A DNA stretch of 64,000 bases from Acidimicrobiales bacterium (GTDB taxonomy: Bacteria > Actinomycetota > Acidimicrobiia > Acidimicrobiales > DATDAH01): NCBI GenBank assembly GCA_041918615.1, contig JAYRVH010000007.1, positions 71,426-135,425 on the forward strand. The letters are read 5' to 3'. The translations under genes and the position numbers were made by a program. The notes beneath the pieces were generated by a model. The model did no database searches. It was not told the origin of the DNA and saw only the letters and a program-made list of their open reading frames with translations. This document shows, one piece after another, positions 2,127-25,473 of the stretch; the first letter of the stretch is position 1; the number at the start of each line of letters is the position of its first letter.

Positions 2127-2446
2127 TGAAGGTAACAAGGGAAGTCGTATCTGCCAAGTCGGACGAGACCGAGGCCCTCCGCTTTGTCCGAGATGCCTCG
2201 ATGTGACGACCGGGGACCTTGTCCCTGGCGGGATGGTGTCGGGTGAGTTGAGCCCTCCGGGCGAGGCTGTAGGTCTTCCACGACTCACAGCTGCCAGCAG
2301 GGCTCAATGGATCACGTTGGAAGGCAACACCCGAACGCGCCGCGAGCTCAACCGCCCGCGTTCTGGTGGGTCCACGCCCGAGCCCGATCTGCCCAGAAGG
2401 AGTGCAGACGGCCACTCGCTGTCAAAGAGGCCCGCTGGGATGCTCC

Positions 2447-2917
2447 TCAGCTCACGGTGAGCGTCCCGGTCATTCCTGCCTCGGCATGACCGGGGACATC
2501 ACACTTCATGGTGTAGGTCCCGGGAGCGAGGGATCCCAGATCGAGCTCGGTTGTGGCCCCGCCGTTCACCATCTCCGATGCGACCCCATCGACACTGAGG
2601 TTGTGGACCACGGTGCCTTCGTTGCTGATGTTCAGCACGGCTCCTGCCGGCACATCGACCTCGCCGGGCGTGATGGCGAACTCCGCCAGCGCCACAGGCA
2701 CGGCCTCCGTACCCGTCGCCGAGGTGGTCCCACCGCCGCCTGCCGAGTCTTGGGCCTCCTCGATCGCTCGCGCCGCCAGGCCGACGGCGAAGATCGCCGC
2801 CAGGAAGGCGAACGCGGCGATGAAGAGCCCGGCCAACGCGAGCGTGTCGGTGTTGAGCCCGGGTCGGCCACGAGTGGTGGCCGCCTGCTCCGGTCGGTCT
2901 GAGGTGATCGGTGTCAT
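2447..2917 (-). CDS. membrane-anchored cupredoxin (plastocyanin/azurin-like copper protein)
   Basis: The ATG at 2917 gives an N-terminal TM helix (LALAGLFIAAFAFLAAIFAVGLAA). The C-terminus VHNLSV...YTMKCDVPGHAEAGMTGTLTV carries a type-1 copper ligand pattern (H...C..H....M). Confidence 0.75.
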   Translation of the reverse strand: MTPITSDRPEQAATTRGRPGLNTDTLALAGLFIAAFAFLAAIFAVGLAARAIEEAQDSAGGGGTTSATGTEAVPVALAEFAITPGEVDVPAGAVLNISNEGTVVHNLSVDGVASEMVNGGATTELDLGSLAPGTYTMKCDVPGHAEAGMTGTLTVS

Positions 2918-2924
2918 CGGGCTC

Positions 2925-4070: not shown

Positions 4071-4149
4071 TGCCTAGCCCTAGGGCCGGAGGTCCCGAAG
4101 ATCAGGGCCGTTGTCCCGTCCTCGCCAGCTGACGCCTACAGCTCGAGCA

Positions 4150-4390
4150 CGGACGAGGAGTTTGAACACGTACCCACAGGCGCCCGATCGCTTGCAGAGG
4201 GACGTGGCCTTCGACGACGTAGCCGTCGACCACGGAGGTGAACGCCGTGTTCGACCATCCCTCGATCCAACGCTGTCAGCTCCACAAGATCCGCATCGAC
4301 GTCGAAGCCCGATTGCCCAAGGACCTCGCCTCGACGATGACACGCAAGATGCGGGCCAACTACCACCCCCCCGACCCCCCGCTGAATCCG
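4150..4390 (+). pseudogene. IS256 (mutator) family transposase remnant, truncated and frameshifted
   Basis: Three frames each carry a piece of the transposase core: ...ARSLAEGRGL / DDVAVDHGG / VNAVFDHPSIQRCQLHKIRIDVEARLPKDLASTMTRKMRANYH. The QRCxxHKxRN signature is recognisable. No intact ORF and no terminal repeats are seen. Confidence 0.55.
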
Positions 4391-4400
4391 CGACCGATGT

Positions 4401-7400
4401 CTAGGTCGACCGCAGGTCGAGTCGAACTTGCTCGATCGATTCCTCGGGGTCGCCGAGCTTCGCTTGCTCGAGCGCCGCGGCATGCTCCTGGTAGACGCTC
4501 TCGGCGCCAGGGCGGTCGTCGTCGGCGATGTGGGCTCGCATGAGGCTCTCGACGACGGCGCTGTTCAACGGGATCGTCTGCACGACTCGGCCGAGCATCG
4601 CGATCGCCCCGCTTGGCTGGCCGGCGTCGATGTACAAAGCGGCGCAGGCCTGCGCGACCCCTGCGACCCGCAACTCCCAGCTCGTCGCGTGGTGCTCGAA
4701 GTCGACCCAGCCGAACGAGGCGCGGGCGGCGTTCGGATAGGAGAAGGGCTTGCCGAGGACCAGGTCGAGCGCGGCCTGGTAATGCTCGACCGCTTCGTCC
4801 GGCGGGAGATCGGCAGCGCGCTGGACGTGCCAATCGAACAGATCGAGGTCAGCACGGACACGCGGCCCGACGACGTACTTGCCGCTGCGATTGGCCGGGA
4901 AGTGCTGGGATCCGAGAGCAGAGCGACTCTCGGCCATCGTGTCGTGAAGCCGCTTGGTGTGCGAGGTGCCGTCCGAGCCGAACCAGCAGGCTTCCTCCAG
5001 CCGTTCGGTCGTTACCGAGCGGTGGAGCGCCAAGTAGGCGACGACTGCCGTCGCCTTGGGCTTCAGGGGCTCGCCGCCCTCGACAGTGATGTCCCCAAGC
5101 ATCCGAACGAGTACGTCGTACCCGGGCGGAGCGTCGGCTGATTCGTCCGCGATTGGATCGAGGAGCTCATCGTCATCGGCGGGTCCGGTGCCGTTCAACG
5201 ATGCGGGCGCTTCGAACTCGGCCCGCAACTGTTCCATGAGCTCCTGTTCCGCTGGGCTGTCGGTGGCGACGAGGACGCTGGAGATCGCGGCCAGTTCATC
5301 CGCCTCGAGCTCCTGGGGTGAGCAGGCGAGGTCGATCATGTCGAAGTTGAGCACGTCGCCCTCGCAGCGGACCGTGGCGAGGGCGTCGGGGAACTCGCCG
5401 ACGACGACCACAGCGACCGCGGACGGCTGGACGGCGCGAAGTGCGGCAGCCAATTCGTCGGGAGGTGGCCGGTGAGCGACCACCGCAACCGGGACGAGCG
5501 CGTCGTGGTCGGGCTCGTGCCCACGCCCGACGAACGCGTTGGCCCAGCCGTTCTCGACGAGCGCGGCGTGGGATTGGGTTGCCCATGCGACGAGGTCCTC
5601 GGCGTGGCCGTCCCAGGTGTCGACGATGGTGAGGTGCTCGAGGACTTCGGCGTCGCGGTCGACGACATCGCCGACCGCGATGACTCGGAGCGTGTCGGCG
5701 AGTGGGCTGAGCGTCAGCTCGGTAATGATCGAGCGAGCGAGGTTCGTGGCGACCTCGAGGTCGCCGGTGAGGGCCAGGACACCGTCCGCTTCGAGGTCGA
5801 GGTAGAGCTGTGCGTCGTCTTCGGGCTGGCCGACCGTCACCATGAGCGGTGACGGGCTGAGCGGCCCGTCGTACGGCTCGTCTGTGTCGGGTGGCTCGAC
5901 CAGGGTCCAGACCTTGCCGTTGTCGGTGCTGATCCATCCGGCTGGAGGGTTCGTGTCGGGCTTGTCGAGCAGGACTTCGAGGCTCGTGTCGGAGTGTCGG
6001 ATCATCCGCGGTCGGCATTCCGATCCCATGGCTGCGAGGGACGCGGAGAGTCGGCCGAGCACGCCCTGGAGGTCGTCGATGCGATCCTCATCGGCTTGTG
6101 CAATGACCGTCTGGTGCAGCTCCCGCTGCTCAGCCGGAGTGCGCCCGGGGAGCTGGCCAGGGTGCTCGTTGGCGAAGCGGCGCCGACGCCGGTCGAGGAG
6201 CCGTTTGAGTCCAACCGCTAGAGCGATGCTCGACAACCCGCCCACAACCACGGCCACCGGCACTGCAGAGTTGCTCGACTCATCATCCTCTGCGGTGTCG
6301 GCTCTGGCTGGCTCGTCAACAGGTCGAAGTGACGCCTCGGCCGAAGTGGGTGGTGCCTCATCGACTGCGGGCACTTCAGCTTCAGGGGCCGCTGGGGGTG
6401 GCGGCACGTCATCCGATTCGGCAGCGTCGTCCCGGGGCGGCGCGGGCTCGGCTTCGACTGGCGGAGGTGGAGATGACGGCGGCTCGTGGCCTGTGCGTGG
6501 GAGAACAAGGACTTGGCCGGAGTAGATGAGGTTGGGGTTACCTGGCTGGAGGTAGCGGTCCTGGTTGGCATCGACGACCTCCCCCCAGTAGGGGGCGATC
6601 TCCGGATTGGCAGCCTCCCGTCCGAGGTCGTCTTCGAGCCGGTCCTCGGAGATGGACCAGAGGTTGTCACCGCGTTCGACCACAACGCTGCCGAGGTCGT
6701 CCTCTTCCGAGACAGCCGAAGGAGAACCATCAGAAGGTGAGGCAGCGGACTCGACGGTGGCGTCGGCAGGCAACAGGAGGACCCAGCCCGAGTGCAGCGT
6801 GTCGTCTCCAGCGATGATCGTGGTGCCGTCGGGGAGCGTGCGCCCGACGTTGAGGTCAAGGATCTCGCGCCACCGGAGGCCGTCCCCAAGGGTGCGTTCG
6901 GCGATGGCCCAGTAGCTGTCGTGCCGTTGGACGGTGACGGTCGGAGGCTCGGCCGTTAGCGCTGTCGGAGTCAGGTCGCTGGTCCGAACGAGGAGCGGCG
7001 GCGTGTGGCCGTTGAAGCTGGGCACCAGCAGGTCGGGGATCGATTCCGGTGTGGCTGCCGCTGCTTCGGCGACGATGGGCAAGGGAGGTGGCGCGGCGAG
7101 GGCGCTGGCGGGTTGCACGGTCGAGGCCATCATGAGAATCCCGGCGACCAGGCGGGCGGCGGTGACCTGGAAGGCGGGGAGCACCGGGAGGTGGATTGCT
7201 TGGCGGCCTCTGGCGACCGCAACCGCTTCTGTCACCACCGCGAGGGCGAGTTGTGCCCAGGCGATCCACGCGATGACCGCCAACGTGTTGACGAGGACCT
7301 GGTCACTGATACCCGACTGCGCCGCCTGCTCAAAGGAGTCGAGGGTCGGGATACTGGTCGGTAGCGGCCAGCCCACCAAAGTGGCGAGCAGGAGTGGGAC

Positions 7401-8921: not shown

Positions 8922-9833
8922 TCAGGGTTGGGGCCCGCTGACTGTCGTGATCTGCACGACGGCGGGGTAGGCGATGAAGACGAGGAAGCCGAACAACAGG
9001 ACGGCGACAGGGACGGTCATGCGTTCCGTGGCTGCCTCTGCCGCGGCCTCGATCTCGGCGACTTGGTGGCCTCGGAGCGTGTCAGCCTTGGCGGCGAGGG
9101 AGGATCGGATGCGAGCGCCGTGTGATCCGGCGAGGGAGACGCTGGCGGCGAGCTCGGCCATCTCGTTGATGCCGGAGCGGGTGCCGAGTTGGGCGAAGGC
9201 GTCCCACGGGGACTGTCCGGTGAGACGGGCGCGGCGCAGTTCGGCGCGGATGGTCTGGTACCCCCAGCCGTCGCCGGCGTCCGCAGCGGCGTGCAGCGCC
9301 GTTTCGATGCCGGCACCTCCGGCTAGGAGCACGTTGACCAGGTCGAGATAGGACGAGAGCGCGTGGCGGAACGCTTGTCGTCGCTTCGCTGCCTCCTCAC
9401 GCAGGATGAGATCGGGCAGCAGGAATCCCGCTGCCGCGGTCGCCAGCGAGAACATGGCGATGACACCGATCGGCACCGGGATGCCGAGAACCACGAGCGC
9501 AGTGGCGGCCAGATTGGGGACGAGCAGCCCGGCGATTGCGCCGAGGAGCTTGTCGAAGGCGTGTCGCTCAGTACTGCGGCCGACGAGTTCCAGCTCCTGA
9601 TCGTGGCGGCGAGCGTCGTAGCCGAGGGCCCCGACGACGCGTCCGGCAGCCGATTCGATCTGGCCGAACCCTGACGCGCCCGATGGTGCGACGTCGTCGA
9701 TGCTGGTTCCTGGGCGAGCGAGCCCGGCGAGGACCGCCTCGACGCTCGACGGGCGTGGTGCCAGGCCTCGCCAAATGAGCAGAACGCCGACACCGACGCC
9801 GGCTCCCAGCAGGACTACGACGAGCGTGGTCAC
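8922..9833 (-). CDS. tadC: type II secretion system F-family protein TadC
   Basis: The GTG at 9833 (VTTLVVVLLGAGV...) overlaps the tadB stop as GTGA. The sequence is a polytopic GspF-like protein (LSSYLDLVNVLLAGGAGIETAL...MTVPVAVLLFGFLVFIAYP). The longer 645-aa ORF-track extension is an out-of-frame overlap with tadB. Confidence 0.8.
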   Translation of the reverse strand: MTTLVVVLLGAGVGVGVLLIWRGLAPRPSSVEAVLAGLARPGTSIDDVAPSGASGFGQIESAAGRVVGALGYDARRHDQELELVGRSTERHAFDKLLGAIAGLLVPNLAATALVVLGIPVPIGVIAMFSLATAAAGFLLPDLILREEAAKRRQAFRHALSSYLDLVNVLLAGGAGIETALHAAADAGDGWGYQTIRAELRRARLTGQSPWDAFAQLGTRSGINEMAELAASVSLAGSHGARIRSSLAAKADTLRGHQVAEIEAAAEAATERMTVPVAVLLFGFLVFIAYPAVVQITTVSGPQP

Positions 9834-10702
9834 GTCTCCGCTCCGACGTGCGTCGGCCCGCCGGCTCGGGCGGTGAACCGCTCGGGCAGTACAAGCTCGG
9901 CCATGCGCGTGAGGAGCCAGCCTCCGACGGCGAAGATGCCGCCCACGATGGCCAACATGACTTGGCCGCCGGCGCTGTCGTACACGGCGAGGTAGCCGCG
10001 GTTTGCGATGGCGAGGAAGACCGCCGCCGCAATCACGACGCCGAAGATGACCTTCGTCGCCGTACGGACTCGGGTGCGGCCCACCTCGACTCGGATGCGC
10101 ATTCGGGCGTCGCCGCGGGTGGCGTCCGCTAGACGAGAGAGCAATCCTGAGAGATCGGAGGCTTCCATGCGGGAGGCGATCACCAAGGCCGCGACGACGA
10201 GGTCGCCAGAGGGATGGTCGAGGTCCTCGCCGAAGGCCACGAGGGACTCGGGGAGCCGCTGGTGGTCGAGGCGACGGACCATCCTTCGCACCTCGGTAGC
10301 TAACGGGGAAGGTGCGACGGGCGCGGTGGCGACGATGGCCTCCTCCAGTCCGGAGGCGGCGACGATCGAGTCGCGGATCATCTCGGTCCAAGAGGCGATG
10401 GCTTCGGTTCGGTCGATGGCTCGTTGCCTCGCGCTCTTGCCGCCGAGGATGCCTGGCAAGACGAGCGCAGCAACGACGGCCATGACGCCTCCGACCAGCC
10501 ATCCGGTTGCTGCGAATACGACCAGCCCGGCAGCAGCCGCTATGGAGACATTTCGCAGCTTTGAGCTGTCGACGATGCGTCGGAGGGAGCTCCAAGGAGC
10601 GTCGAGAATCTGACGGCCGGCAAGCCCGGCGACGGTCACGAGCACCCCGAGGGCGGCGCCAGCTGCAAGGGCGGCGAGGACGAGAGCGGTCATCGCCACC
10701 AC
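9830..10702 (-). CDS. tadB: type II secretion system F-family protein TadB
   Basis: A 290-aa polytopic protein (WTEMIRDSIVAASGLEEAI...KVIFGVVIAAAVFLAI). An alternative ATG at 10693 forms an ATGA overlap with the tadA stop. Confidence 0.8.
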   Translation of the reverse strand: MVAMTALVLAALAAGAALGVLVTVAGLAGRQILDAPWSSLRRIVDSSKLRNVSIAAAAGLVVFAATGWLVGGVMAVVAALVLPGILGGKSARQRAIDRTEAIASWTEMIRDSIVAASGLEEAIVATAPVAPSPLATEVRRMVRRLDHQRLPESLVAFGEDLDHPSGDLVVAALVIASRMEASDLSGLLSRLADATRGDARMRIRVEVGRTRVRTATKVIFGVVIAAAVFLAIANRGYLAVYDSAGGQVMLAIVGGIFAVGGWLLTRMAELVLPERFTARAGGPTHVGAET

Positions 10703-12042
10703 CCGTGGGCGGCTGCGTGGGCACTGGCGTCGAAGCCGTGGGCTTCGAGCTGGGCCGCGAGGTCCGGGGTCGGTGGTGCTGCCGGGATCCCGCTACCGGT
10801 GCTGTCGGGTTTCCACAGCTCGTTGGAGACGACTTGGCCGCCTTCGACCGTGCCGGCAACTTGACGGACGCTGGTCACCCGACGTTCGCCGGATACCCAG
10901 CCGAGGTGCACGATGAGGTCGACGGCGTTGGCCACCAGCAGGTTGGTGACATCGGGGATCAGCCGCTCGGGAGTCATGGCGGCGTACATGGCGAGCCGCC
11001 CGAACACGCCTTTGGATGAGTCGGCGTGGATCGAACACATCGAGCCGTCGTTGCCTTGGCTCATGGCGAGCAGCATCGGGAGGACCTCCGCCCCCCGGAC
11101 CTCACCGACGATTACCCGCTGGGGATCCATACGCAGCGCAGAGCGGACCAGTTCCGCGAGGCTGAATGAGCCAACGCCTTCGGTGTTGGCCTCGCGGGCT
11201 TCGAGCGTCTCGTGGTCGGGGTGAAGTTCCTCGAAGCGCTCCAGGCCGATCTCCAGCGAGTCCTCGATGGTGATGAGGCGCTCGGTGGCAGGAATCTCAT
11301 TGATGAGGCACCGCAGAGTCGTCGTCTTCCCGGTGCCGGTGCCGCCGGCCACGATGATGTTGGCTCGCGCCCGCACCGCAGCCGACAGGAAGTTGGCGAG
11401 CAGTTCGTCACAGACCCCTCCGTCCACCAGCTGGGACAGGCGGTGTATGTCGAAGTCGTGGCGGCGGATCGTGACCGTCGGGCGCCCCGACACCGCCATG
11501 AGCGCGTGGAGACGGTCGCCGTTGGGTAACTGGAGGTTCAGCTCCGGCTGGGCGTGATCCCACCGGCGCTCGCTTCGCCCGATGCGCCGGGCGGCTGTGG
11601 CGATGAGCTCGATGAGGTCGTCGTCGAAGTCGGCGACAGCGGGCCCGCGGACCTTGGTTCCATCTCGCAGGTTCAGCCAGACGCGCTGAGCGCCAGAGAT
11701 GTGGATGTCTCGGATCTGGGGGTCATCGAGGAGCGGCTGAAGACGAGCGAGACCGTGGATGCGGTCGAGCACCGCCGCAGTGACCTTGGCTTCGGTGGCC
11801 TCGTCGAGTGGCGCCCGGCCATCGGCGTAGGCGCTCGCCGCTAGATGGCGGAGGTCATCTGCCATGAGCTTGCGGGCCAGTGCTCGTTCGTCGCTGGGCG
11901 AGAGCCGGCCGCGGCCTGCTTCTTCGTGGGCTACGTGGGCTGCCGTGAGCGCCTCGCCGACGCTGTGGTGCAGCCGGGCGACAAGATCAGAGTCGATCCC
12001 ATCCTGATGCCACGCTGTCGGCGCGGTCACCGTTGCGGTCAT
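10690..12042 (-). CDS. tadA: CpaF/TadA family secretion ATPase
   Basis: Walker A is GGTGTGKTTTLRCL. The motifs RLITIEDSLEIGL, RMDPQRVIVGEVRGAEV and SMCSIHADS are the VirB11/CpaF signature. Confidence 0.9.
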   Translation of the reverse strand: MTATVTAPTAWHQDGIDSDLVARLHHSVGEALTAAHVAHEEAGRGRLSPSDERALARKLMADDLRHLAASAYADGRAPLDEATEAKVTAAVLDRIHGLARLQPLLDDPQIRDIHISGAQRVWLNLRDGTKVRGPAVADFDDDLIELIATAARRIGRSERRWDHAQPELNLQLPNGDRLHALMAVSGRPTVTIRRHDFDIHRLSQLVDGGVCDELLANFLSAAVRARANIIVAGGTGTGKTTTLRCLINEIPATERLITIEDSLEIGLERFEELHPDHETLEAREANTEGVGSFSLAELVRSALRMDPQRVIVGEVRGAEVLPMLLAMSQGNDGSMCSIHADSSKGVFGRLAMYAAMTPERLIPDVTNLLVANAVDLIVHLGWVSGERRVTSVRQVAGTVEGGQVVSNELWKPDSTGSGIPAAPPTPDLAAQLEAHGFDASAHAAAHGWWR

Positions 12043-12749
12043 GGCACAGCCTCAGCCACGGGCTCGAGCAGCGAGGCTCCGACATTCTCGCCCAGCGCCG
12101 CAACCGCCCGAACGAGTCGAGACCGGGACAGCCGTGCTCTGGACGCGTTTCCGGTGCGCAACGCCTCGGCCGCATCCGGGTCATCGGGCAGTTCTCCGAC
12201 CACCCTCACTCCGATCGAGCGCTCGACATCGGCACTGCGGTAGGGCCCGTGTCCGACGAGAAGGACGCTGGCCTGACCCCGGACCACGTGGGGCAGCACC
12301 GATAGGAGGTGAGTGAGCGCCACGAGCTGCTCGGCGACCGGGTGGACAAGGATGGCCAGAAGGTCCGAGGCGGCGACGATCGGGCTCGGTGACCGCAGAC
12401 GTCCAGCATCGACGACCGCGACTCCGTCCGAGGCGACCAGTTCACGGGTGATTCGCTCCCCCGCCGTACGCCACAACGCGGCGCTGGAGGAAGGCGCGTC
12501 CGGGCCGACGAGCACCGGCACTCCGCCCGCGTCCTGTGCGTGCGCCGTCCACCCGCTCCCGTCGCCCGGTCCAGCAGCGGCGAACGTCGTCAGGCCCGGC
12601 TCCCGGCCAAGGCCGTATCGGATGGCGAGGACACCACCGTCGAGGTCGGCCTCGACTACCAGGCCGTCGGCGAAAGTCGACGCCAGAAGGAGCGATGCCG
12701 TGGTCACGCCCGGAGCGCCCCGAACCGATGCGAGGGTCACCACCTTCAT
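12039..12749 (-). CDS. TadZ/CpaE-like ParA/MinD-fold protein with a degenerate P-loop
   Basis: MKVVTLASVRGAPGVTTASLLLAS replaces the canonical GGxGKT motif. It sits between cpaB and tadA and overlaps both by 4 nt. Confidence 0.55.
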   Translation of the reverse strand: MKVVTLASVRGAPGVTTASLLLASTFADGLVVEADLDGGVLAIRYGLGREPGLTTFAAAGPGDGSGWTAHAQDAGGVPVLVGPDAPSSSAALWRTAGERITRELVASDGVAVVDAGRLRSPSPIVAASDLLAILVHPVAEQLVALTHLLSVLPHVVRGQASVLLVGHGPYRSADVERSIGVRVVGELPDDPDAAEALRTGNASRARLSRSRLVRAVAALGENVGASLLEPVAEAVP

Positions 12750-13417
12750 GGGGCCACCAACACGAGTCGCAACCCACCTGCACCGGCCGCGGCCGCGACC
12801 GCCGCGGCATCAGCCTCATTGGTCAGGACCGAGACCAGGATCTGATCGCTCGGCAGGTCCTCGACGTCGAACACCGTGGCGGAGCGAGCGACGACCGTCG
12901 GCTCTGCATCGAGATTGGCCACGTCCTCGGTGCGCACGACGTGCACACGGTCGCCAGGGGCCAGTCCACGCGAGGGGTAGGCCCCCGGGTCGAGGGACAG
13001 CCCGACGACTCCGTCACCGGTGTCGACCGCTGGGACGTCCGCAACCACCGAAGTCGAGAGGAGCGTCCCTTCGGCAAGGTCGATCAAGGCGGCACGCCCG
13101 ACGACCCGGTCCATCTCCGAGCTGTCGAGACGCGCCAACGTGCTGTCGCTGGACACATACGCGACTCGGACGTCGCTGGCGTCGATCATTTCTCCCCGCT
13201 CGAGCGGTGACGCCGCGACCAACGCCGGCACCTTCTCGACCGCGCTCAGGTGCCACAGAGCGGCGCCGAGGGCGAAGACGACCGTGACAAGGACACCGAT
13301 CGCAACCTCTGGCACCCGTATCCGACTCCCCGGTGGACGGACCTCTGCGGAGGGGCGTGTCGGCTGCCCGTTGGAGGAAGGGGCACCTGTCCGAGTTGGG
13401 GTATGGGTCGACACCAC
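12746..13417 (-). CDS. cpaB: CpaB/RcpC-like SAF-domain pilus assembly protein
   Basis: It has an N-terminal TM helix (VAIGVLVTVVFALGAALW). A SAF-like segment follows (LVAASPLERGEMIDASDVRVAYV), with a typical C-terminal region. It starts at a GTG. Confidence 0.7.
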   Translation of the reverse strand: MVSTHTPTRTGAPSSNGQPTRPSAEVRPPGSRIRVPEVAIGVLVTVVFALGAALWHLSAVEKVPALVAASPLERGEMIDASDVRVAYVSSDSTLARLDSSEMDRVVGRAALIDLAEGTLLSTSVVADVPAVDTGDGVVGLSLDPGAYPSRGLAPGDRVHVVRTEDVANLDAEPTVVARSATVFDVEDLPSDQILVSVLTNEADAAAVAAAAGAGGLRLVLVAP

Positions 13418-15883: not shown

Positions 15884-15979
15884 CACCTCCCGCTGGACCT
15901 CCCGCGCGACCTCCCGTGGAACGGATTTCTCGAGCTCACTCCCCCGGTTCGACCGACACACCTCCCGCTCGACCTCCCG
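15884..15979 (+). repeat. five direct copies of (G/C)ACCTCCCG in two 12-bp-phased groups, inside the divergent promoter region
   Basis: Copies are at 15884, 15896 and 15908 (12-bp steps) and at 15959 and 15971 (12-bp step). They lie in the 189-bp gap between the sigma-like gene (-) and the 16029 gene (+). Confidence 0.85.
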
Positions 15980-16028
15980 TTCGCTCTCGCACTGCGCGCT
16001 GCGCCGCTGCTCAGGGGCCTACGAGGGC

Positions 16029-16571
16029 ATGGAACGTGATCGAACGCTGTCCTTCACCCCGGTCGACCACCCCGACCTACGCGTGCAACGGATCGGGTTC
16101 GACCTGACCGACCCCTACGTCGAGCAGTGCTGGTCAGCGGTCGTCGGCCCCAGCTCGACGCTGTTGCTCCGTCGACTTCCCACCTTGTGGGTCACGCGGG
16201 TGCCCGCCGAGATCGGCGCCAGCGACCTGTCCCGCTCCCTGGGCCTCGGCGTGGGTGTCGGCGACCGGAGCCGGCTCGCGAACACGCTGAATCGGCTCGT
16301 CCAGTACCGGCTGGCAACGCCATCATCTGACGGAGCGGGGCTCGATGTGTTCCGCAAGGTTGCGCCGCTCAGCCCCCGCCAGCTCGCTCGGGTTCCGGAG
16401 TGGACGCACGGCACCCACGAGCGCCTCTTCGGCACCCACCTCGAGCACATCGACGACGTCGCCCAGCACCGAGCGAGCGTCGCATCGATGGGCGCTCGAC
16501 TGGACCGCCTCCGGCACGGGTCACCGACTGTGGCACACGAACCCCACCCACTCGGGCAGGCCCTCGGATGA
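16029..16571 (+). CDS. hypothetical protein, possible winged-helix DNA-binding protein (relaxosome accessory candidate)
   Basis: MERDRTLSF...SDLSRSLGLGVGVGDRSRLANTLNRLVQYRLA resembles a wHTH recognition helix plus wing. The upstream part of the 472-aa ORF is antisense to the sigma-like gene. The start is uncertain. Confidence 0.45.
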   Translation: MERDRTLSFTPVDHPDLRVQRIGFDLTDPYVEQCWSAVVGPSSTLLLRRLPTLWVTRVPAEIGASDLSRSLGLGVGVGDRSRLANTLNRLVQYRLATPSSDGAGLDVFRKVAPLSPRQLARVPEWTHGTHERLFGTHLEHIDDVAQHRASVASMGARLDRLRHGSPTVAHEPHPLGQALG

Positions 16572-16713: not shown

Positions 16714-19700
16714 GTGAAGTTCACGGTCACCCCGCTGGGCGGCGGACGGGCCGATGCGGCCCGTGTCGTGGACGCGATCGTTCGCTACCTCCAGCCGCCG
16801 CCCAAGGTCACGCCTTCGGGTCCTTCCCCGGCGTCGGGTGGGGATGGCCCGGCGCGGTACTACGCGGACCGGGGCGAGGAGCCGGGTCGGTGGCTCGGAC
16901 GGGCCGCTCATGACGCTGGGCTCGCCGGGGTCGTACAGCGGCCTGACCTTACAGCGGTCCTGGCGGGTCGGGACCCGCACACCGACCAGCGGCTCATCAC
17001 CGCTCAGGGCTCAGCAGGTCGGCGACCCACCCTCGGATCGGGGGCACACACCAAAGTCGGGGCCGACGGCGAACCGCTGTACGACGTGGCCGACACGGCG
17101 GCTGCGCTCGGGGTGTCACACCGCCAGGTCGAGCGGATGCTCGATGCCGGCACGGCCGTCGCACTCGGCTCCCTCGCTACGACCCTGGGGCCGCAATCAC
17201 CACCGGGAGGTCCAGCGGGACCTCCCGTGCGACCTCCCGACAGGGATACCGAAGCTCAGCGACCTCCCGCTGGACCTCCCGTCACCCCTGTAACCAGCAC
17301 GTTCGCGCAGCCGGGAGGCTCCTACCTCGTGCCCCTGGTCGAGGGCGACGGTTCGCGATGGGTGCGGGCCAGCGAGCTGGCCCGCTGCGACCGCGCCAGG
17401 GATGCCGGGGTGGAACCTGGCGAGATCCGGGCACTAGGGGCTCCCGACGATCACCTCGGCCTAGCCGAAGCTGCCCGCCTGATCGGGCTCACCAAGCAGT
17501 ACGTGCGCGGACTCGCCCGCTACCACAACGAACACCAAGTCGAGATCGAACGATCCCTCGCCGCCGGGCGCCACCCACGCAAAGCCTTCCTGGTCGCTCA
17601 CCGGGGCACGAAGGGGCAGTGGCTGGTCACCCGCGAGCACCTGGCCGAGTTCCTAGAACGCCGACGCCCACCTTCGGTGCGGGTCGGCTACGACCTCACA
17701 TTGACTACCGAGAAGTCCCTCGGCGTCCTCGCCCTCCTCGCTGACGACACGACTCGGGACACGGTGCTGGGGTCGATCCAGGCGGGGAACGATTGGGCGC
17801 TCGACTGGCTCGAGGACCACGCTGGGACGGGCCGCGTCGAGGGCCGTCAGGTCCAGGGCGACGGGTGGATGGTGGCGTCGTTCCGGCACCTCACCTCCCG
17901 AGCGCTTGACCCGTTCCCGCACCATCACAACGTGATCGCCAACACCGTCCGGCTCACTGACGGCACCCACCGGGCCCTCGACGCCCGTGGCCTCTACCAA
18001 CATGCCCAGGCGGCCTCAGCGCTCGCGACCGCTGAGATGCGCCACCAGCTCACCGAACTGCTCGGGGTGCGGTGGCGGCCAGGCCACAAGTCCGGCTGGG
18101 AGATCGACGGCATCACTAGGGATGTCATCGGCGAGTTCTCCAAGCGGCGCAACGAGATCGACGACGCCCTCCGCGAGCTCGAAGCAGAGATCGGACGAGG
18201 CGCGCATCCCAACGAGATCGAACACATCGTGCTGCGCACCCGCCCGGCCAAGAACCACGTCCCCGCTGACGACCTGATCGCCGCATGGCGGGAGCGCGCC
18301 GCTCGTCACGGCCTCACTCCCGACGCGCTCGCCGCGATCACGAGCCAGCAACTCAACGAGCAGACTGTCGATGCCAATGAGTTGTTCGCGTCGCTCGCCG
18401 GGCCCGACGGCATCTGCGCGGGAGGGTCTGTGTTCTCCCGGTCCGCGGCGCTGGCCGCGATAGCCAACCATCCCGTTCCCGCCACCGACGGCGACGAGGC
18501 CCAGCCGCTGCTGTGTGGAGCGCGCCGAATGATCGAACTGACCGACGAGTTCCTCGCCTCACCACACGTTGTCGCGCTCACCGAAGCTGACGACCCCTTG
18601 TTCACCACAATCGAGATGCTCGACGTGCAGGAGCGCATCACCGCTCGGTTCACCAAGGGTCTCCACCGCGCCGCACACCTCGTCCCCGACGAGCAGGTCG
18701 ACGCCACGGTCGGCCGCCACCCACACCTGACCGCTGAACAGCAACGGCTGGTCACCGAGTGGTGCCAGCGCGGTCACCGGTTCCAAGCCGCCATCGGTCG
18801 CGCCGGAGCGGGCAAGACCACCACGGTCGCCGCCTGCGCCGATGCGTGGACCGCCGAGGGCTACCGAGTCGTCGGTGCCGCGGTGAAGGGAGAAGCGACC
18901 CGGACGCTCGCGGCCGCTACCGGGATCGAGTGCGAGACCGTCGCCTGGTATCTCGCCCACACCGACCCGCACAGCCTTCCGCTCGATGCACGGACGATCC
19001 TCGTCGTCGACGAAGCGTCCACGCTCTCGGACCGCGACCTCGACACCCTCATGGGCATGGCCGCCACCACTGGCGCCAGCCTCCGACTCGTCGGTGACCC
19101 CGCCCAGCACGGCGCCATTGCCGCCGGCGGCATGTTCCGAGTGCTGTGCGAACGCCATCCGCAGCACACCCCAGAGCTGACCACCACGCACCGGCTCCAG
19201 AACCCCCACGATCGCGCTGCCGCCCAGGCTCTCCGTGAAGGTCGGATCGATGAGGCCTTCGACGAACTGGCCACGGCCGGACACCTCCATGTCGTCGGCG
19301 ACGACCTCACCATGTACCGCCATGTCCTCGGCCACTGGTGGGACGCCCACCGAGACGGACTGGATCACCCGATGGTCGACCGTCGCAACAGCACCCGCCG
19401 CCAGCTCAACCGCCTGGCTCACCTCCTCCGCCAAGTGAATGGCGAACTCGGCGACGAGGAGATCCGAGCCAGCGGGGGTCGAGCCTTCGCCGTTGGCGAC
19501 CGCATCACCGCCCGCGCCCCGAACCGCGATCTTCACGTCGAGGGCGACCGACGCGCCTACGTCCGCAACGGCGCCCTCGGCACCGTCGTCGCCGTCCACC
19601 GGCACCGCCGAGACAGCGCGCGCGACACGCTCTCCGTGGCGTTCGACGGGATCGGCAGCATCGAAATCCCACGGACCTTCTTCGACCTCCACAGGACCCC

Positions 19701-20037
19701 GGCCGGTCGACCCGAGGTCGGGATCGATCACGCCTACGCGTTGACCAGCTACGCCGTCCAGGGCTCAACCCGTGACATCTCCACCAGCCGGGTGGACGCC
19801 ACTGCGACCCGCTCCGAGACTTACGTGGACATCACCCGAGGACGATACGAGAACCACCTCTACCTCACTGCTACAACCGACCCGCTGGACGGTGAAGCCC
19901 TGCCCCGCATCCCGCCCGCTCCCGCCGACCTCGCCGTCGCCGAACGCCTGCACCGCTCCACCGGCGAGCTGACCGCGTGGGAACTCGCTCACCCCGCTGA
20001 CCAGAGCGAGGCGAGGGATCAGGCCGTCGGAATCTGA
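16714..20037 (+). CDS. MobF-family relaxase (TrwC/TraA-like) fused to a RecD-like helicase
   Basis: The GTG at 16714 gives VKFTVTPLGG. The relaxase motifs are ARYYADRGEEPGRWLG, GYDLTLTTEKSLGVL and RALDPFPHHHNVIAN (His triad). The helicase motifs are GRAGAGKTTTVAA, LVVDEASTL, LVGDPAQHGAI and ALTSYAVQGST. Confidence 0.9.
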   Translation: MKFTVTPLGGGRADAARVVDAIVRYLQPPPKVTPSGPSPASGGDGPARYYADRGEEPGRWLGRAAHDAGLAGVVQRPDLTAVLAGRDPHTDQRLITAQGSAGRRPTLGSGAHTKVGADGEPLYDVADTAAALGVSHRQVERMLDAGTAVALGSLATTLGPQSPPGGPAGPPVRPPDRDTEAQRPPAGPPVTPVTSTFAQPGGSYLVPLVEGDGSRWVRASELARCDRARDAGVEPGEIRALGAPDDHLGLAEAARLIGLTKQYVRGLARYHNEHQVEIERSLAAGRHPRKAFLVAHRGTKGQWLVTREHLAEFLERRRPPSVRVGYDLTLTTEKSLGVLALLADDTTRDTVLGSIQAGNDWALDWLEDHAGTGRVEGRQVQGDGWMVASFRHLTSRALDPFPHHHNVIANTVRLTDGTHRALDARGLYQHAQAASALATAEMRHQLTELLGVRWRPGHKSGWEIDGITRDVIGEFSKRRNEIDDALRELEAEIGRGAHPNEIEHIVLRTRPAKNHVPADDLIAAWRERAARHGLTPDALAAITSQQLNEQTVDANELFASLAGPDGICAGGSVFSRSAALAAIANHPVPATDGDEAQPLLCGARRMIELTDEFLASPHVVALTEADDPLFTTIEMLDVQERITARFTKGLHRAAHLVPDEQVDATVGRHPHLTAEQQRLVTEWCQRGHRFQAAIGRAGAGKTTTVAACADAWTAEGYRVVGAAVKGEATRTLAAATGIECETVAWYLAHTDPHSLPLDARTILVVDEASTLSDRDLDTLMGMAATTGASLRLVGDPAQHGAIAAGGMFRVLCERHPQHTPELTTTHRLQNPHDRAAAQALREGRIDEAFDELATAGHLHVVGDDLTMYRHVLGHWWDAHRDGLDHPMVDRRNSTRRQLNRLAHLLRQVNGELGDEEIRASGGRAFAVGDRITARAPNRDLHVEGDRRAYVRNGALGTVVAVHRHRRDSARDTLSVAFDGIGSIEIPRTFFDLHRTPAGRPEVGIDHAYALTSYAVQGSTRDISTSRVDATATRSETYVDITRGRYENHLYLTATTDPLDGEALPRIPPAPADLAVAERLHRSTGELTAWELAHPADQSEARDQAVGI
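17204..17281 (+). repeat. five further GACCTCCCG copies inside the relaxase ORF, including a 10-4-10 palindrome
   Basis: CGGGAGGTCC-AGCG-GGACCTCCCG spans 17204-17227. Direct copies lie at 17219 and 17231 (12-bp step) and at 17261 and 17273 (12-bp step). They encode GGPAGPPVRPPD...RPPAGPPV. Confidence 0.85.
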
Positions 20038-20107
20038 GGTTCCTCGCGAAGTGCTGGCGCCGCCCGGGGCCTACGTAGACAGACCACCGACCATCGAGGA
20101 GAACCCG

Positions 20108-20329
20108 ATGTCTGCCACCGAGACCGACACCTCGACCGAGGTGCTCACCATCGACGAAGCCGCCGCCATCCTGCGCATCAGTCGCAACGCCGCCTACGCC
20201 GCCGCCCGCCAGTGGAGGGCCACCGGCGGCGACGCCGGCCTCCCCTGCATCGAGATCGGTCGAACCCTTCGCGTCCCCCGCGCCGATCTCGACCGGCTCC
20301 TCGGACGTACCGCCAGCGGTGCGCTCTGA
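20108..20329 (+). CDS. xis: excisionase-family helix-turn-helix protein
   Basis: The ATG at 20108 has a GAGGAG RBS. VLTIDEAAAILRISRNAAYAAARQW...IEIGRTLRVPRADLDRLL is the MerR-like excisionase HTH pattern. Confidence 0.7.
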   Translation: MSATETDTSTEVLTIDEAAAILRISRNAAYAAARQWRATGGDAGLPCIEIGRTLRVPRADLDRLLGRTASGAL

Positions 20330-20416
20330 GACGGCCCAGTCCGAGCCATCGCCTGCCCGTCGCGCCGACTCGACAAGGCTGGAGGCTGGCGGCCTTGGAG
20401 CGGATCGCAAAACCGT

Positions 20417-20432
20417 GCGAACATCTGTTCGC
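20417..20432. promoter_or_regulatory. LexA-type SOS box gCGAAC-ATCT-GTTCGc
   Basis: Perfect match to the Gram-positive/actinobacterial CGAAC-N4-GTTCG core. It lies 21 nt upstream of the DUF5131 GTG and 9 nt before its GAGAGGAGG RBS. Confidence 0.6.
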
Positions 20433-20452
20433 TTCGATCGAGAGGAGGATCC

Positions 20453-21199
20453 GTGGCACAGAGGTCAGACATCGAATGGACCGACGCGACGTGGAACCCG
20501 ACGACTGGATGCGACCGGACATCGCCCGGGTGTGACAACTGCTATGCGCTCGCGCTGGCGAAGCGACTTAAAGCGATGGGCGTCGACAGATACCAAAACG
20601 ACGGCGATGCTCGCACGAGCGGACCGGGATTCAGGCTGACCACGCACGAGGACCTCGTCGAAGTGCCCTACCGGTGGAAGAACCCCCGGCTGGTGTTCGT
20701 GAACTCCATGAGCGACCTCTTCCACGACGACGTGCCCGAGGACTTCATCCGGCGGATCTTCACAGTCATGGCCGAGACACCGCGCCACACGTACCAGATC
20801 CTGTCCAAGCGGACGAAGCGGCTCACCAGGCTCGCGCCGAACCTGGACTGGCCAACGAACGTGTGGATGGGCACCAGCGTTGAGACCGCCCCCTATCGGT
20901 TCCGAATCGACCATTTACGCGAGGTCCCTGCCGCCGTCCGGTTCGTCTCGGCTGAGCCGCTCCTGGGCCCACTTGGTCGCGTGGACTTGGAGGGCATCGA
21001 CTGGGTGATCGCTGGCGGCGAGTCAGGACCGCGAGCGCGACCCATGGACATCGCGTGGGGTCGCGACCTCCGCGACCAATGCCTTACCCAAGGGGTCAAG
21101 TTCTTCTTCAAGCAGTGGGGGGGCCGCACTCCGAAGGCTGGCGGCCGTGAGCTTGACGGCCGGACGTGGGACGACATGCCAATTCCAGCAGCGGTGTAG
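20453..21199 (+). CDS. DUF5131 / phage Gp37-Gp68 family protein (three-Cys motif)
   Basis: [26 protein letters not shown] carries C-x6-C-x2-[34 protein letters not shown] and FFFKQWGG are the family pattern as I remember it. Confidence 0.8.
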
Positions 21200-21206
21200 G
21201 GGCTCT

Positions 21207-22364
21207 ATGCCAGCGAGTACCGCCTTCTTCGGGCAGCGAAACGCCCAGGCAGTCCTCAAACACGGGGTCCTGGCCCGCTATGCGCACTACTTCGCGGGGC
21301 GGGCAGGCGCTGCGACACAGGGGCGCGTCGCATTCATCGATGGGTACGCGGGCGAAGGGCGCTACAAGGACGGCAGCCCCGGTTCTCCCCTGCTCCTCGC
21401 ATCCCAGGCGACCCGAGCCGAGATGTTCGGCCGCGAAGTGAAGCTCGCCTTCGTCGAGCAGGACGATGCCCGCCGACTTCGGCTCCAGCGATCCCTCGAC
21501 GACAACCAAGTCGAGGCCGACCAGATCCTGGACGGCGACCTCGAATCAGTCGTTGATGGCCTGATCGACAGGTACGAACGACACGCGATTCTCCTCTTCG
21601 TCGATCCCTTCGGCCTGGCCTTCAGTCAAGTGACGCTGAAGCGCATCCTGGGCCGCCGGACCCGCCAGCAGCCGATCGATGTTCTCTACCACTTCAGCCT
21701 CTCGACGGTGGCCCGCATGGGCCGCGCTGGTGTCCTCGGTGGACCGACATCGCAACAGAACGCGGCGCGGCTGGACACTGCCCTCGGCGGGGTGGACTGG
21801 CGACACGACTTCGACACAGCCGACGACCCCAACGCTCCCACGCTGGCTGCGCTCGAGGTTGCGAGGCGGTTCGGATCCTCGGTGGGCGAGGCGGCCAACG
21901 TACCGAGTACTGGCGTGCCCGTCCGTCAGCGTCCTGGGCAGCTGCCGAAGTACGTCCTGATGCTGTTCTCTGCCGATCCGAAGGCCCACTGGGACTACGC
22001 CGACGTAGCGGGCAAGACGCATGTGGACTGGCTGCACCACTGCGACCACACGGACTACGAAGCGAACATTCAGCTACGTGCAGAAGCCGGCGTCCTTTCC
22101 CTGTTCGAGGAACCTGAACCCGACAAGGACGAGATCGAGCAGCAGATTCGCCGCGAGTCCCTTGCCTACCTCCCTGACCATTTGGCCGAGCTCGTCCGCA
22201 CGCGAGAGTCCCTTCGACCTGTCGATGCGGTGCAGGAGACCTACGGTGAACAGCTCGGTCTTGCTCGAGCAACCCATGTGCGCGCGGCGCTCCAGCAGTT
22301 GCACCGACAGGGCGTCATCGCCGATGACGCCACCGGAGACTTCTGGACGAGATCAATCCGATAG
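21207..22364 (+). CDS. three-Cys-motif partner protein TcmP-like
   Basis: The ATG at 21207 lies 8 nt after the DUF5131 stop. AVLKHGVLARYAHYF...VAFIDGYAGEGRYKDGSPGSPLL...LLFVDPFGL matches the TcmP N-terminal pattern and its invariable adjacency to DUF5131. The C-terminus looks like a winged helix. Confidence 0.7.
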   Translation: MPASTAFFGQRNAQAVLKHGVLARYAHYFAGRAGAATQGRVAFIDGYAGEGRYKDGSPGSPLLLASQATRAEMFGREVKLAFVEQDDARRLRLQRSLDDNQVEADQILDGDLESVVDGLIDRYERHAILLFVDPFGLAFSQVTLKRILGRRTRQQPIDVLYHFSLSTVARMGRAGVLGGPTSQQNAARLDTALGGVDWRHDFDTADDPNAPTLAALEVARRFGSSVGEAANVPSTGVPVRQRPGQLPKYVLMLFSADPKAHWDYADVAGKTHVDWLHHCDHTDYEANIQLRAEAGVLSLFEEPEPDKDEIEQQIRRESLAYLPDHLAELVRTRESLRPVDAVQETYGEQLGLARATHVRAALQQLHRQGVIADDATGDFWTRSIR

Positions 22365-22384
22365 AACCCGGAGCGGCTGATCGG

Positions 22385-23668
22385 TCAGTTCTCGATCACG
22401 TCAGGTGTGTCCCGCTGGCGGCGAGCCGAGGCTGAGCATGCCTCCTCTGGCAGCTCGTCGTCTTCGCCGCCGTCGCCACGGCTCGCATCGGGCCTCGCCT
22501 TGTTCCGCTCGTTGCGGAGAAGCAACGAGAACGTGTCGGCGGCGGCGGCCTGCATTCCGGGCAGGACATGCTGATACACGTTCATGGTGAAGGCGACGTT
22601 GGCATGACCAAGGCGCTCGCTGACGACCTTGACGTTGACGCCGGCCTTGAGCAGCAGGGTCGCGTGGGTGTGGCGGAGATCGTGCAATGAGATGTCCGGG
22701 ATTTCGATCTTGGCGACGGTGCGGTCGAAGAGCTGGCTGAAGATGTCCGGGTGCATCGAGGTGCCGTCGGCCTTGACGAACACGAGGTCGTCGGCCGTCG
22801 GCTGCACGCCGTCGCGCTCCTCGGTGCGGTTCTTGTGCCAGTCCTTCAGCACCTGGGCGACGTTGTCGTCGATGTCGATGGTGCGACGGCTGGTTGTGGT
22901 CTTCACATCCGAGATCGAGACCTCGTAGGCCACCGACACCAGGGCCTGACGGACAGACACCCGACCGGCGTCGAGGTCGAGGTCCCGCCAGCGCACCCCG
23001 AGCACCTCGCCCCGGCGCATACCGGTGTATGCCGAGAAGTAGAACGCCGGGGCCATCCGGTGCGGGGCGATCGCATCGAGGAACCGGACGAGCTGGTCGA
23101 TCTCCCACGCCTTGATCTCGGGGCGCTTGCGAGCCTGGAGCGACGGGGCGTCGGCGAGAGCGACGACGTTGCGGACGACGGTGCCCTTGCGGGCCGCGTC
23201 TCCGAGCGCCTTGTTCAGCATCACGTGGATGTTGTGCACCGTCTTGGGTGCCAGGCCCTTCGTCGGGCCCTTCTCGCCGGGGCGCTTCTTGCGGCCGGAC
23301 TTGAGCAGCGCCGCATAGAACAGGTCGATGTCCTCGGGGGTCAGCTCGTCGAGCTGGCGCTTGCCGAGCGCTGGGATCACGTGCAACTCGATGTTGCGCC
23401 GGTAGGCGTCATGGGTACTTCTGCGCAGCCGGGCCTCCTGGACTGGCAGCCACCGGTCGGTCAGGTAGTCGCCGAGTGTGATCCTCTCGCTCACCACGGT
23501 CTCGCCGCCGTGGCTGCGCTTCACCAACTCCGCGAGCAGTTTCTCCGCGTCCCCGCGCCGTGTGCCCGCCTGGACCCACCGCCGCCGGTACTGGCCGGTC
23601 GCTGGGTTCACGCCGTCGTAGACGACGGCATACCACTTCTTGCCCTTCTTCTGGATGGTTCCGCGCAT
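22385..23668 (-). CDS. int: tyrosine-type site-specific integrase
   Basis: The ATG at 23668 gives MRGTIQKKGKKWYAVVYDG (an arm-binding-type N-terminus). A SAM-like core-binding region follows. The catalytic residues appear as ...MRRGEVLGVRWRDLD...HDLRHTHATLLL...LGHANVAFTMNVYQH (R..HxxR..Y). Confidence 0.9.
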   Translation of the reverse strand: MRGTIQKKGKKWYAVVYDGVNPATGQYRRRWVQAGTRRGDAEKLLAELVKRSHGGETVVSERITLGDYLTDRWLPVQEARLRRSTHDAYRRNIELHVIPALGKRQLDELTPEDIDLFYAALLKSGRKKRPGEKGPTKGLAPKTVHNIHVMLNKALGDAARKGTVVRNVVALADAPSLQARKRPEIKAWEIDQLVRFLDAIAPHRMAPAFYFSAYTGMRRGEVLGVRWRDLDLDAGRVSVRQALVSVAYEVSISDVKTTTSRRTIDIDDNVAQVLKDWHKNRTEERDGVQPTADDLVFVKADGTSMHPDIFSQLFDRTVAKIEIPDISLHDLRHTHATLLLKAGVNVKVVSERLGHANVAFTMNVYQHVLPGMQAAAADTFSLLLRNERNKARPDASRGDGGEDDELPEEACSASARRQRDTPDVIEN

Positions 23669-24011: not shown

Positions 24012-24088
<77 letters not shown>

Positions 24089-24926: not shown

Positions 24927-25235
24927 TCAGCAACCGGCCGCAGCCGCCTGCACCCGACAGGCCTCAGCCATGCGGGGCGGCGACAACGTCGTGACCCGGC
25001 GGCGCAGGGCCGATCGGGCAACCGTGTGGACGTTGTCGAAATTCACCACGCAGTCCGTGGGCACGCCGTCGCGGTCGACGCGCAGCTCGAGCTCGGAGAC
25101 CAGCCCCCGGCTCGTGCGGGTGAGCGCCGCGACCACGACCGAGCCGATCCGATCCGCGACCGGGTCACGCGTCAACACGAGCACGGGCCGATCGCCACCG
25201 GATGTTGCTGCGAACCAAATTTCACCCCGCCGCAT
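24927..25235 (-). CDS. mazF: MazF/PemK-family type II toxin
   Basis: MRRGEIWFAATSGGDRPVLVLTRD...VVAALTRTSRGL...CVVNFDNVHTV is the PemK/MazF pattern. Confidence 0.75.
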   Translation of the reverse strand: MRRGEIWFAATSGGDRPVLVLTRDPVADRIGSVVVAALTRTSRGLVSELELRVDRDGVPTDCVVNFDNVHTVARSALRRRVTTLSPPRMAEACRVQAAAAGC

Positions 25236-25473
25236 CGGACCACTCCGTCCACTCCTCGGCGGGACCCCAGTCGGCGATCTCGGCGAGCGAGGACTCGCCC
25301 GCGTCGAGTGGTGTGGCGATCCACGTGCCGGCATCCCGCTCGCTGGCCAACCGGAGCAGGTGCAGGCGAAGCGCGTCTCGGAGCAGTTCCGACCGATCGA
25401 TCTCCAGCTGGGCAGCCCACGCCCCTGCCTCGGCGGCGATCGCACCGTCGACACGGAAACTCAGCATCGTCAT
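25222..25473 (-). CDS. type II antitoxin (RHH/MazE-like)
   Basis: An 83-aa acidic protein (MTMLSFRVDGAIAAEAGAWAAQLEIDRSELLRDALRLHLLRL). It overlaps the toxin start by 14 nt. Confidence 0.65.
   Translation of the reverse strand: MTMLSFRVDGAIAAEAGAWAAQLEIDRSELLRDALRLHLLRLASERDAGTWIATPLDAGESSLAEIADWGPAEEWTEWSDAAG

Follow-up and report, generated by a model that had tools for sequence, protein, structure and literature searches.

A LexA-type box upstream of a mobile DUF5131–TcmP gene pair and its possible link to the SOS response

The DUF5131 (phage Gp37/Gp68) and TcmP (three-Cys-motif partner protein) families form a widespread orphan gene pair, and one copy of it raises the questions of when such a pair is expressed and on what it acts. 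This copy lies in a 64-kb stretch of an Acidimicrobiales contig (JAYRVH010000007.1, positions 71,426 to 135,425; hereafter, the window), where it appears to be the cargo of an integrative mobilizable element (IME). The original prediction, made from the sequence alone, had placed a perfect SOS (LexA) box, CGAAC-N4-GTTCG without mismatch, directly upstream of the GTG start codon of the DUF5131 gene. The match proved to be exact, and so did its position; the distance given for it, 21 nt, did not, as 20 nt lie between the end of the box, GCGAACATCTGTTCGC, and the GTG at 20453.

Boxes of this kind are conserved in diverged copies of the element, and LexA motifs of the type used by the respective host are enriched upstream of DUF5131–TcmP pairs in other phyla. 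From these comparisons, we consider it likely that the palindrome is a functional LexA operator. The reading that accounts best for the data, which we hold with moderate confidence, is that of an enzyme pair that would be repressed by LexA, induced by damage, and active on DNA.

The box and the operon in the window

Both family assignments made from the sequence were borne out by hidden Markov model (HMM) searches. The first open reading frame (ORF1) matched PF07505 with 335.2 bits (gathering score 28.9; E-value 3e-100) over profile positions 2–243 of 243, and ORF2 matched TIGR04474 with 105.1 bits (NCBIfam cut-off 53) over positions 2–261 of 263. The ATG of ORF2 at 21207 follows the stop codon of ORF1 after a 7-nt spacer. 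The C-x6-C-x2-C motif claimed for the DUF5131 protein is also present, as C20, C27, and C30.

GCGAACATCTGTTCGC is the sole perfect CGAAC-N4-GTTCG in the window. It matches 14 of 14 core positions of the actinobacterial motif, which is TCGAAC-N4-GTTCGA with the core CGAAC-N4-GTTCG (PMC2248561, PMC9380542); its outer positions are G/C, not T/A. By itself, such a match is not significant, since 0.14 perfect matches are expected by chance per window and 12 of 100 shuffles contained at least one. The weight of the box comes instead from its position and from comparative data. When one mismatch was allowed, the window contained nine matches (eight of them imperfect) versus 3.9 expected, a number reached in 1 of 100 shuffles. 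None of the imperfect matches is obviously promoter-placed, and their excess is probably an effect of base composition.

In related element contigs, the DUF5131 proteins are 100%, 92%, 85%, and 84% identical to that of the window. When the intergenic regions between the excisionase gene (xis) and the DUF5131 gene of these copies were aligned, the box stood out as a conserved island between flanks that carry substitutions and indels. It persists as CGAACATCTGTTCG or CGAACATATGTTCG in the 92%, 85%, and 84% copies, and CGAACATATGTTCG departs from the box of the window solely in the free spacer. Perfect boxes with other spacers were found in two more distant homologues as well: CGAACACGCGTTCG, 31 nt before the start codon, in the unrelated locus L096 (77% identity, a different context, and a fragmented TcmP; L numbers denote the loci and contigs compared here), and CGAACGCGTGTTCG, after a TTGACA hexamer, in the viral contig L179 (71% identity). 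In a chromosomal orthologous pair with 83% identity, located beside a MazE/PIN toxin–antitoxin system (L094, positions 4960–5000, and L095), the homologous position holds a degraded form of the box, CGACCATGGATCCG, as if the operator had been lost.

A candidate promoter read by eye places its -10 hexamer within the box (Table 1). The arrangement of TTGGAG or TTGGAT, a spacer of 17–18 nt, and GAACAT is retained in the window, L093, and L098. The predicted RNA structure of the intergenic region was no different from that of shuffled sequences (z 0.66), and the region is thus not an RNA element. Neither lexA nor recA was found within the window.

LexA-type motifs upstream of pairs across bacteria

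The original prediction had proposed a survey for the same box at other DUF5131–TcmP pairs. We scanned one genome per species (GTDB representatives) and obtained 80 loci, in which an adjacent TcmP was sought with an iterated TcmP profile and found in 67. The order was TcmP then DUF5131 in 38 loci and DUF5131 then TcmP in 18, the genes were convergent in seven and divergent in four, and 13 loci had no adjacent TcmP. The interval just upstream of the first gene of each pair was then scored for exact occurrences of the LexA motif classes known from the literature (GAAC-N4-GTTC; CTGT-N8-ACAG; GTTC-N7-GTTC, read in both orientations; and the Myxococcus motif CTRHAMRYBYGTTCAGS). The 12.5 kb of pair-upstream intervals contained 13 exact motifs, against 22 in the other 608 kb (0.45 expected, Poisson P 3e-15). 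Counted by locus, these were 13 of 80 pairs versus 2 of 405 regions upstream of other, neighbouring ORFs at these loci (Fisher P 2e-9); in 2000 Markov resamples that preserved local base composition, the mean was 0.62 motifs and the maximum did not exceed four. Two replicate sets pointed in the same direction, with six motifs versus 0.76 expected in metagenome contigs and four versus 0.82 in viral contigs. The partner genes at the boxed loci are bona fide TcmP genes.

The motif class followed the host wherever the host taxon is known. GTTC-N7-GTTC was found in Alphaproteobacteria (L027, L057, L065, and L071, with L051 just beyond the counting interval), in Acidobacteriota (L028 and L050, as for A. 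capsulatum), and in an unassigned metagenome record (L064). A betaproteobacterium (L068) has CTGTATAAATAAACAG, of the CTGT-N8-ACAG class; Myxococcota have the M. xanthus type, CTRHAMRYBYGTTCAGS (L053, L072, and L073, with near matches in L054); and Dehalococcoidia (Chloroflexota; L052 and L080) have AGAACGTATGTTCT, of the GAAC-N4-GTTC class to which the box of Actinomycetota also belongs. The motifs were assigned to taxa according to PMC2248561 (Table 5) and, for Acidobacterium capsulatum, PMC3323433. Boxed pairs are present in the culturable strains Rhizobium sp. S152 (L027), Paludibaculum fermentans (L050), and Mongoliimonas terrestris (L071); the pair of Nitrospira moscoviensis (L016) has no box. 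The sole case in which host and class do not obviously agree is L059 (Vicinamibacteria, Acidobacteriota), with a one-mismatch motif of the M. xanthus type, which is outside the 13 exact matches. A regulator encoded by the cassette itself would be expected to keep one motif, and the switch of motif class with host LexA specificity therefore argues for LexA itself.

In 17 measured loci, the box ends 2–36 nt before the start codon of the first gene, in either gene order, whereas the boxes of L027 and L028 lie farther out, roughly 50–75 nt upstream. The box of L164 and L166 takes up the whole 17-nt spacer that separates TTGACG/TTGACC from TATCCT/TATGCT, and in L159 it follows TTGACA...TATACT. The answer of the proposed survey was positive: the box is conserved in diverged element copies, and host-type motifs are strongly enriched across phyla. 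Most cassettes have no box, however, and LexA control is patchy (about 10–16% of loci).

In the two Dehalococcoidia loci, a solo DUF5131 gene without TcmP is divergent from a gene for a 1300-aa Lhr helicase, and the promoter region common to both genes contains the AGAACGTATGTTCT box (L052, 3969–3980; L080, 3972–3983). This box could serve the DUF5131 gene, the Lhr gene, or both.

The two proteins and the element that carries them

A methyltransferase-like fold with a winged-helix-like C-terminal tail had been suggested for TcmP from its FIDGYAGEG and VDPFG motifs. The first part agrees well with the predicted structure (AF2, pLDDT 89.7), which has the Rossmann-like fold of class I S-adenosylmethionine (SAM)-dependent methyltransferases. 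Foldseek returned 67 PDB matches at E-value ≤1e-3, and 50 of 50 among the matches listed were SAM-dependent methyltransferases or complexes with one. The top match was RlmJ, an N6-methyladenosine (m6A) rRNA methyltransferase (E-value about 1e-4, TM-score 0.35–0.56). D45, G49, and G51 of the glycine-rich loop and D133-P134-F135-G136 are invariant in 55 TcmP homologues, with DPFG deviating from the DPPY motif. No Pfam methyltransferase family matches TcmP. As for the tail, all matches of the last 90 residues were to winged-helix families, as suggested, yet all were below threshold.

In DUF5131, all three cysteines of C20-x6-C27-x2-C30 are invariant in 45 homologues, and the SAEPLL and GGESG motifs are conserved. 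The protein partially matches TIGR04471, "radical SAM mobile pair protein A", and DUF5131 has been listed as a radical SAM subgroup beside spore photoproduct lyase (SPL), in the same megacluster (PMC9477430). Across phyla, DUF5131 is 55–77% identical, while TcmP is 25–55% identical over the same range. PDB sequence searches with both proteins and both profiles gave nothing significant (the matches to MAD2 had E-values >1), and a PHROGs search returned an unannotated family only. We also dropped a link to Gamma-Mobile-Trio elements, raised by a weak "GMT-wHTH" match, because the products of these elements are two recombinases and a DNA-binding protein, and the pair is not among them.

The two families have more than 8000 close homologues. 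The pair occurs on 440 plasmid records, and DUF5131 in 180 phage records; TcmP is missing beside about half of the viral DUF5131 copies. In prophages of M. abscessus, for instance, a solo DUF5131 gene lies in a module with RecET, DNA methyltransferase, and replication genes. Among 120 flanking ORFs, the neighbour families were heterogeneous, with no third conserved partner.

Profile matches and gene calls confirmed that the pair in the window is cargo between xis and int, as had been claimed (Table 1). Integrase, excisionase, and relaxase genes adjoin a tRNA-Met gene, which identifies the element as an IME, and the module relaxase–xis–DUF5131–TcmP–int recurs in wastewater and other metagenome contigs. 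Three methods revealed no attachment (att) direct repeats, that is, no repeat of the tRNA-Met region of at least 13 nt and no significant short matches. Directly to the left of the relaxase module, at 8922–13417 on the minus strand, are Tad/Flp-like secretion genes (T2SSF, a T2SSE ATPase, and a SAF-domain protein); given these genes, the element may be more extensive than a simple IME. A 20-nt direct repeat, ACCTCCCGCTSGACCTCCCG, is present in five copies at 15885–15979 and 17220–17281, which flank a 196-aa ORF (15981–16571) and sit in the 5' part of the relaxase gene. These repeats may be iterons, origin-of-transfer (oriT) sites, or regulator sites of the element. Past the tRNA-Met gene and outside the element, the gene calls of an identical contig place a PemK/MazF-like toxin with a small antitoxin at ~24927–25473.

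Table 1. Features of the DUF5131–TcmP operon and of the mobile element around it, in window coordinates.
Feature	Position	Strand	Basis or remark
TrwC-type relaxase/helicase of the mobile element	16714–20037	+	PF08751, PF13604; gene call in the identical contig L081
Excisionase-like HTH_17 gene (xis)	20108–20329	+	PF12728, TIGR01764; gene call in the identical contig L081
Candidate promoter: -35 TTGGAG (20395–20400), 18-nt spacer, -10 GAACAT (20419–20424, within the box)	20395–20424	+	inferred by eye
Predicted LexA (SOS) operator, GCGAACATCTGTTCGC	20417–20432	.	6+4+6 perfect palindrome
Ribosome-binding site GGAGGA	20444–20449	+	read from sequence; kept in element variants
DUF5131 / phage Gp37-Gp68 gene (ORF1, 248 aa), radical-SAM-like, C-x6-C-x2-C	20453–21199	+	PF07505
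TcmP gene (ORF2; three-Cys-motif partner protein), SAM-methyltransferase fold and C-terminal winged-helix-like tail	21207–22364	+	TIGR04474
Tyrosine integrase (int), 427 aa, convergent with the pair	22385–23668	-	PF00589, PF14659; gene call
tRNA-Met, presumed integration target	24012–24088	-	ARAGORN

Proposed role, alternatives, and known systems

These data can be assembled into a model. A LexA operator would overlap the core promoter and the 5' end of the DUF5131–TcmP operon, itself the presumed cargo of a tRNA-Met-associated IME in an Acidimicrobiia-like actinobacterium. In the undamaged cell, a LexA dimer would occupy the box and block transcription. DNA damage or incoming single-stranded DNA (ssDNA) would activate RecA, LexA would cleave itself, and the operon would be derepressed. 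TcmP, with its methyltransferase fold, DxxxGxG loop, DPFG in the place where amino-methyltransferases have DPPY, and tail resembling a winged helix-turn-helix (wHTH), would then bind DNA and present a nucleotide, on which DUF5131, equipped with an Fe–S cluster and SAM, would carry out radical chemistry. Judging from the SOS-regulated radical SAM enzymes of the SplB type, this reaction would most likely reverse or process a DNA lesion. That the pair acts on DNA seems to us reasonably probable, because DUF5131 belongs to a radical SAM subgroup beside SPL and shows a weak fold match to SPL, because SplB and COG4277 are SOS genes, and because Lhr and a RecET module are found next to DUF5131. A role specifically in lesion repair or processing is a more tentative suggestion, which may well not hold.

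Several results weigh against this reading. On the protein side, the canonical CX3CX2C motif of radical SAM enzymes is not present in DUF5131, which has C-x6-C-x2-C instead, and the model of DUF5131 is of moderate quality (pLDDT 74), with weak matches to LIAS/lipoyl synthase, spore photoproduct lyase, and MiaB (E-values 4e-3 to 2e-2, TM-scores 0.3–0.45). Non-canonical cysteine spacings do occur in the radical SAM superfamily. A scan of 19900–22700 for consensus sigma-70 promoters and terminators found nothing. Boxes were also missing from other cassettes: none within two mismatches in seven of seven other Actinomycetota species loci (L001, L002, and five more); none near the start in six of six Streptomyces/Micromonospora plasmids, with a single one-mismatch site at -160 in L263; none in pCAR1, the P. 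aeruginosa megaplasmid pPABL048, or a Methylobacter plasmid; and none upstream of the pair of Gordonia phage Jablanski. As most cassettes lack a box, LexA control is an add-on and not a defining property of the pair. Finally, some of the evidence fits defence as well as repair. The neighbours include the defence-type families SIR2/SIR2_2, AAA_21 (AbiEii-like), N6_Mtase, and ResIII. The claim that the pair has no assigned function is in keeping with the searched literature, which holds no functional study of DUF5131/PF07505/COG4422/Gp37/Gp68 or TcmP and none linking them to SOS or LexA; PADLOC, however, already lists the pair as the defence candidates PDC-M30 and PDC-M41.

The loci without a box have features of their own. 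The closest species-level relatives of the window locus, L001 and L002, bear another inverted repeat (TCACAC...GTGTGA in L001) and have an integrase gene directly upstream on the same strand. Four Streptomyces plasmids (L259, L260, L261, and L264) share GG(A/G)TGGTTG(T/G)ATG(G/C)CGG ~110 nt upstream of DUF5131, and the neighbours in Streptomyces plasmids include Ku, dnaE, a NucA/NucB nuclease, and DciA. In pCAR1 (L265) and pPABL048 (L266), at 1800–5100, TACATAC repeats separate an operon of site-specific integrase, DUF5131, and TcmP from a divergent gene for a DNA-binding protein. In phage Jablanski (L177, 4992–6861), a DUF5131 gene and a convergent TcmP gene annotated as "methyltransferase" are located between integrase/RelBE genes and the immunity repressor. 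This DUF5131 is 68% identical to that of the window, and its presence with TcmP in an actinophage indicates that the pair is exchanged between phages and integrative elements.

Could the palindrome have arisen by chance, or could it serve as operator for some other regulator, for example an HTH protein of the element or the wHTH tail of TcmP? A perfect match does arise in 12% of shuffles of the 64 kb, and different operators are clearly in use in other cassettes (TACATAC repeats of the pCAR1 type, the motif of the Streptomyces plasmids, and the inverted repeat of L001). We nevertheless find this explanation very improbable, since the class of motif varies from one host phylum to the next in agreement with the LexA motif of each (PMC2248561), the enrichment is seen in three datasets, the box stays conserved between drifting flanks, and the region gives no RNA-structure signal. 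A different alternative accepts LexA control and assigns the pair to phage defence or abortive infection (PDC-M30/PDC-M41), as a potentially toxic DNA-acting enzyme made only upon SOS-signalled prophage induction or infection. In agreement with this, DUF5131 matches the PADLOC models PDC-M41B/M30B at 340–360 bits, and TcmP matches the A components weakly, at 30–32 bits and over part of the protein only. Carriage on plasmids, phages, and IMEs, the defence-type neighbours, and the much faster divergence of TcmP than of DUF5131 also fit, and the Gordonia phage pair occupies the usual site of prophage-expressed defence genes. In S. meliloti, moreover, a TcmP gene is grouped with the defence gene Hna in an expression table (PMC12445080). 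Against it, the searched literature mentions PDC-M30 and PDC-M41 in survey tables only, with no experimental defence phenotype or mechanism; the neighbourhood is heterogeneous, with no clear defence island; and solo DUF5131 genes in lytic or early phage replication modules and beside Lhr suggest DNA metabolism rather than immunity. On these grounds, we regard a defence role as unlikely, if still worth keeping in view.

The pair might also place an epigenetic or hypermodifying mark on DNA that shields the element from restriction, with LexA control providing expression at excision in an SOS-induced donor or upon ssDNA entry into a recipient. Conjugative entry of ssDNA is an inducer of SOS, and the location of the pair between xis and int on an element with a relaxase gene, the methyltransferase fold of TcmP with its intact glycine-rich loop and DPFG, and the DNA methyltransferase genes that adjoin DUF5131 in phages are all consistent with such a mark. 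However, no other LexA box is present at the xis, relaxase, or int genes, and nothing therefore indicates SOS control of the transfer itself. Many boxed pairs lie on chromosomes, where no mobile context is apparent, and no modified base is known for any of the hosts. Altogether, DNA modification appears to be a rather improbable explanation.

The box is very probably a functional LexA operator, and the operon would be a new member of SOS regulons, one that recurs but is not obligatory. This would give a widespread orphan pair its first condition of expression, one that points to DNA damage. LexA operators of four motif classes seem to have been recruited before the pair in unrelated phyla, and cassettes of these families have the operator version of their own host in at least five other bacterial lineages. 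The operon would also exemplify mobile-element cargo wired into the host damage response, and it would be a further case of a radical SAM enzyme in SOS regulons, where such enzymes are found repeatedly. A more far-reaching proposal, of which we are doubtful, is that DUF5131–TcmP constitutes a third, hitherto unrecognised radical SAM DNA-damage module of SOS regulons after SplB/COG1533 and COG4277 with its uracil-DNA-glycosylase; it would have been spread by plasmids, phages, and integrative elements, would have come under LexA control on separate occasions in at least five or six lineages, and would perform radical chemistry of a new kind on DNA (lesion reversal or damage-triggered modification) in which a methyltransferase-fold protein serves as the DNA-presenting subunit.

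Among characterised enzymes, N6-adenine methyltransferases of the RlmJ type provide the best match to the TcmP model, and DGYAGEG and DPFG stand at the positions of motifs I and IV. The two differ in that the match is limited (~10% identity, at the TM-scores given above), TcmP has DPFG and not DPPY, and it carries extra helical and wHTH-like C-terminal parts. PDC-M30 and PDC-M41 correspond strongly to DUF5131 through their B components and weakly to TcmP through their A components; they are candidates only, with nothing recorded on SOS control. The imuA-imuB-dnaE2 cassette is likewise a horizontally spread multi-gene unit under lineage-specific LexA boxes in many phyla. It encodes translesion polymerase components with a role in mutagenesis, whereas the present pair consists of a radical-SAM-like enzyme and a methyltransferase-fold protein.

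The closest parallels are found among radical SAM proteins. Genes for SplB-like radical SAM "DNA repair photolyases" (COG1533) are recognised SOS members in several phyla (PMC8565304, PMC7739468, PMC9380542, PMC3765255). As in the proposed case of DUF5131, SplB is an enzyme of the radical SAM superfamily under LexA; DUF5131 falls into a neighbouring subgroup (PMC9477430), and SPL is among its best, weak fold matches. Unlike SplB, DUF5131 belongs to PF07505, has C-x6-C-x2-C, needs or prefers a methyltransferase-fold partner, and is mostly found on mobile elements with patchy LexA control. The operon of a COG4277 radical SAM protein and a COG1573 uracil-DNA-glycosylase is another recognised SOS member (PMC8565304; COG4277 also in PMC7739468 and PMC9380542). 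There, the partner is a glycosylase and not a protein with a methyltransferase fold, and the families are unrelated at the HMM level, but the design is shared: a two-gene LexA-regulated operon in which a radical SAM protein is joined by a partner that handles DNA bases (PMC8565304).

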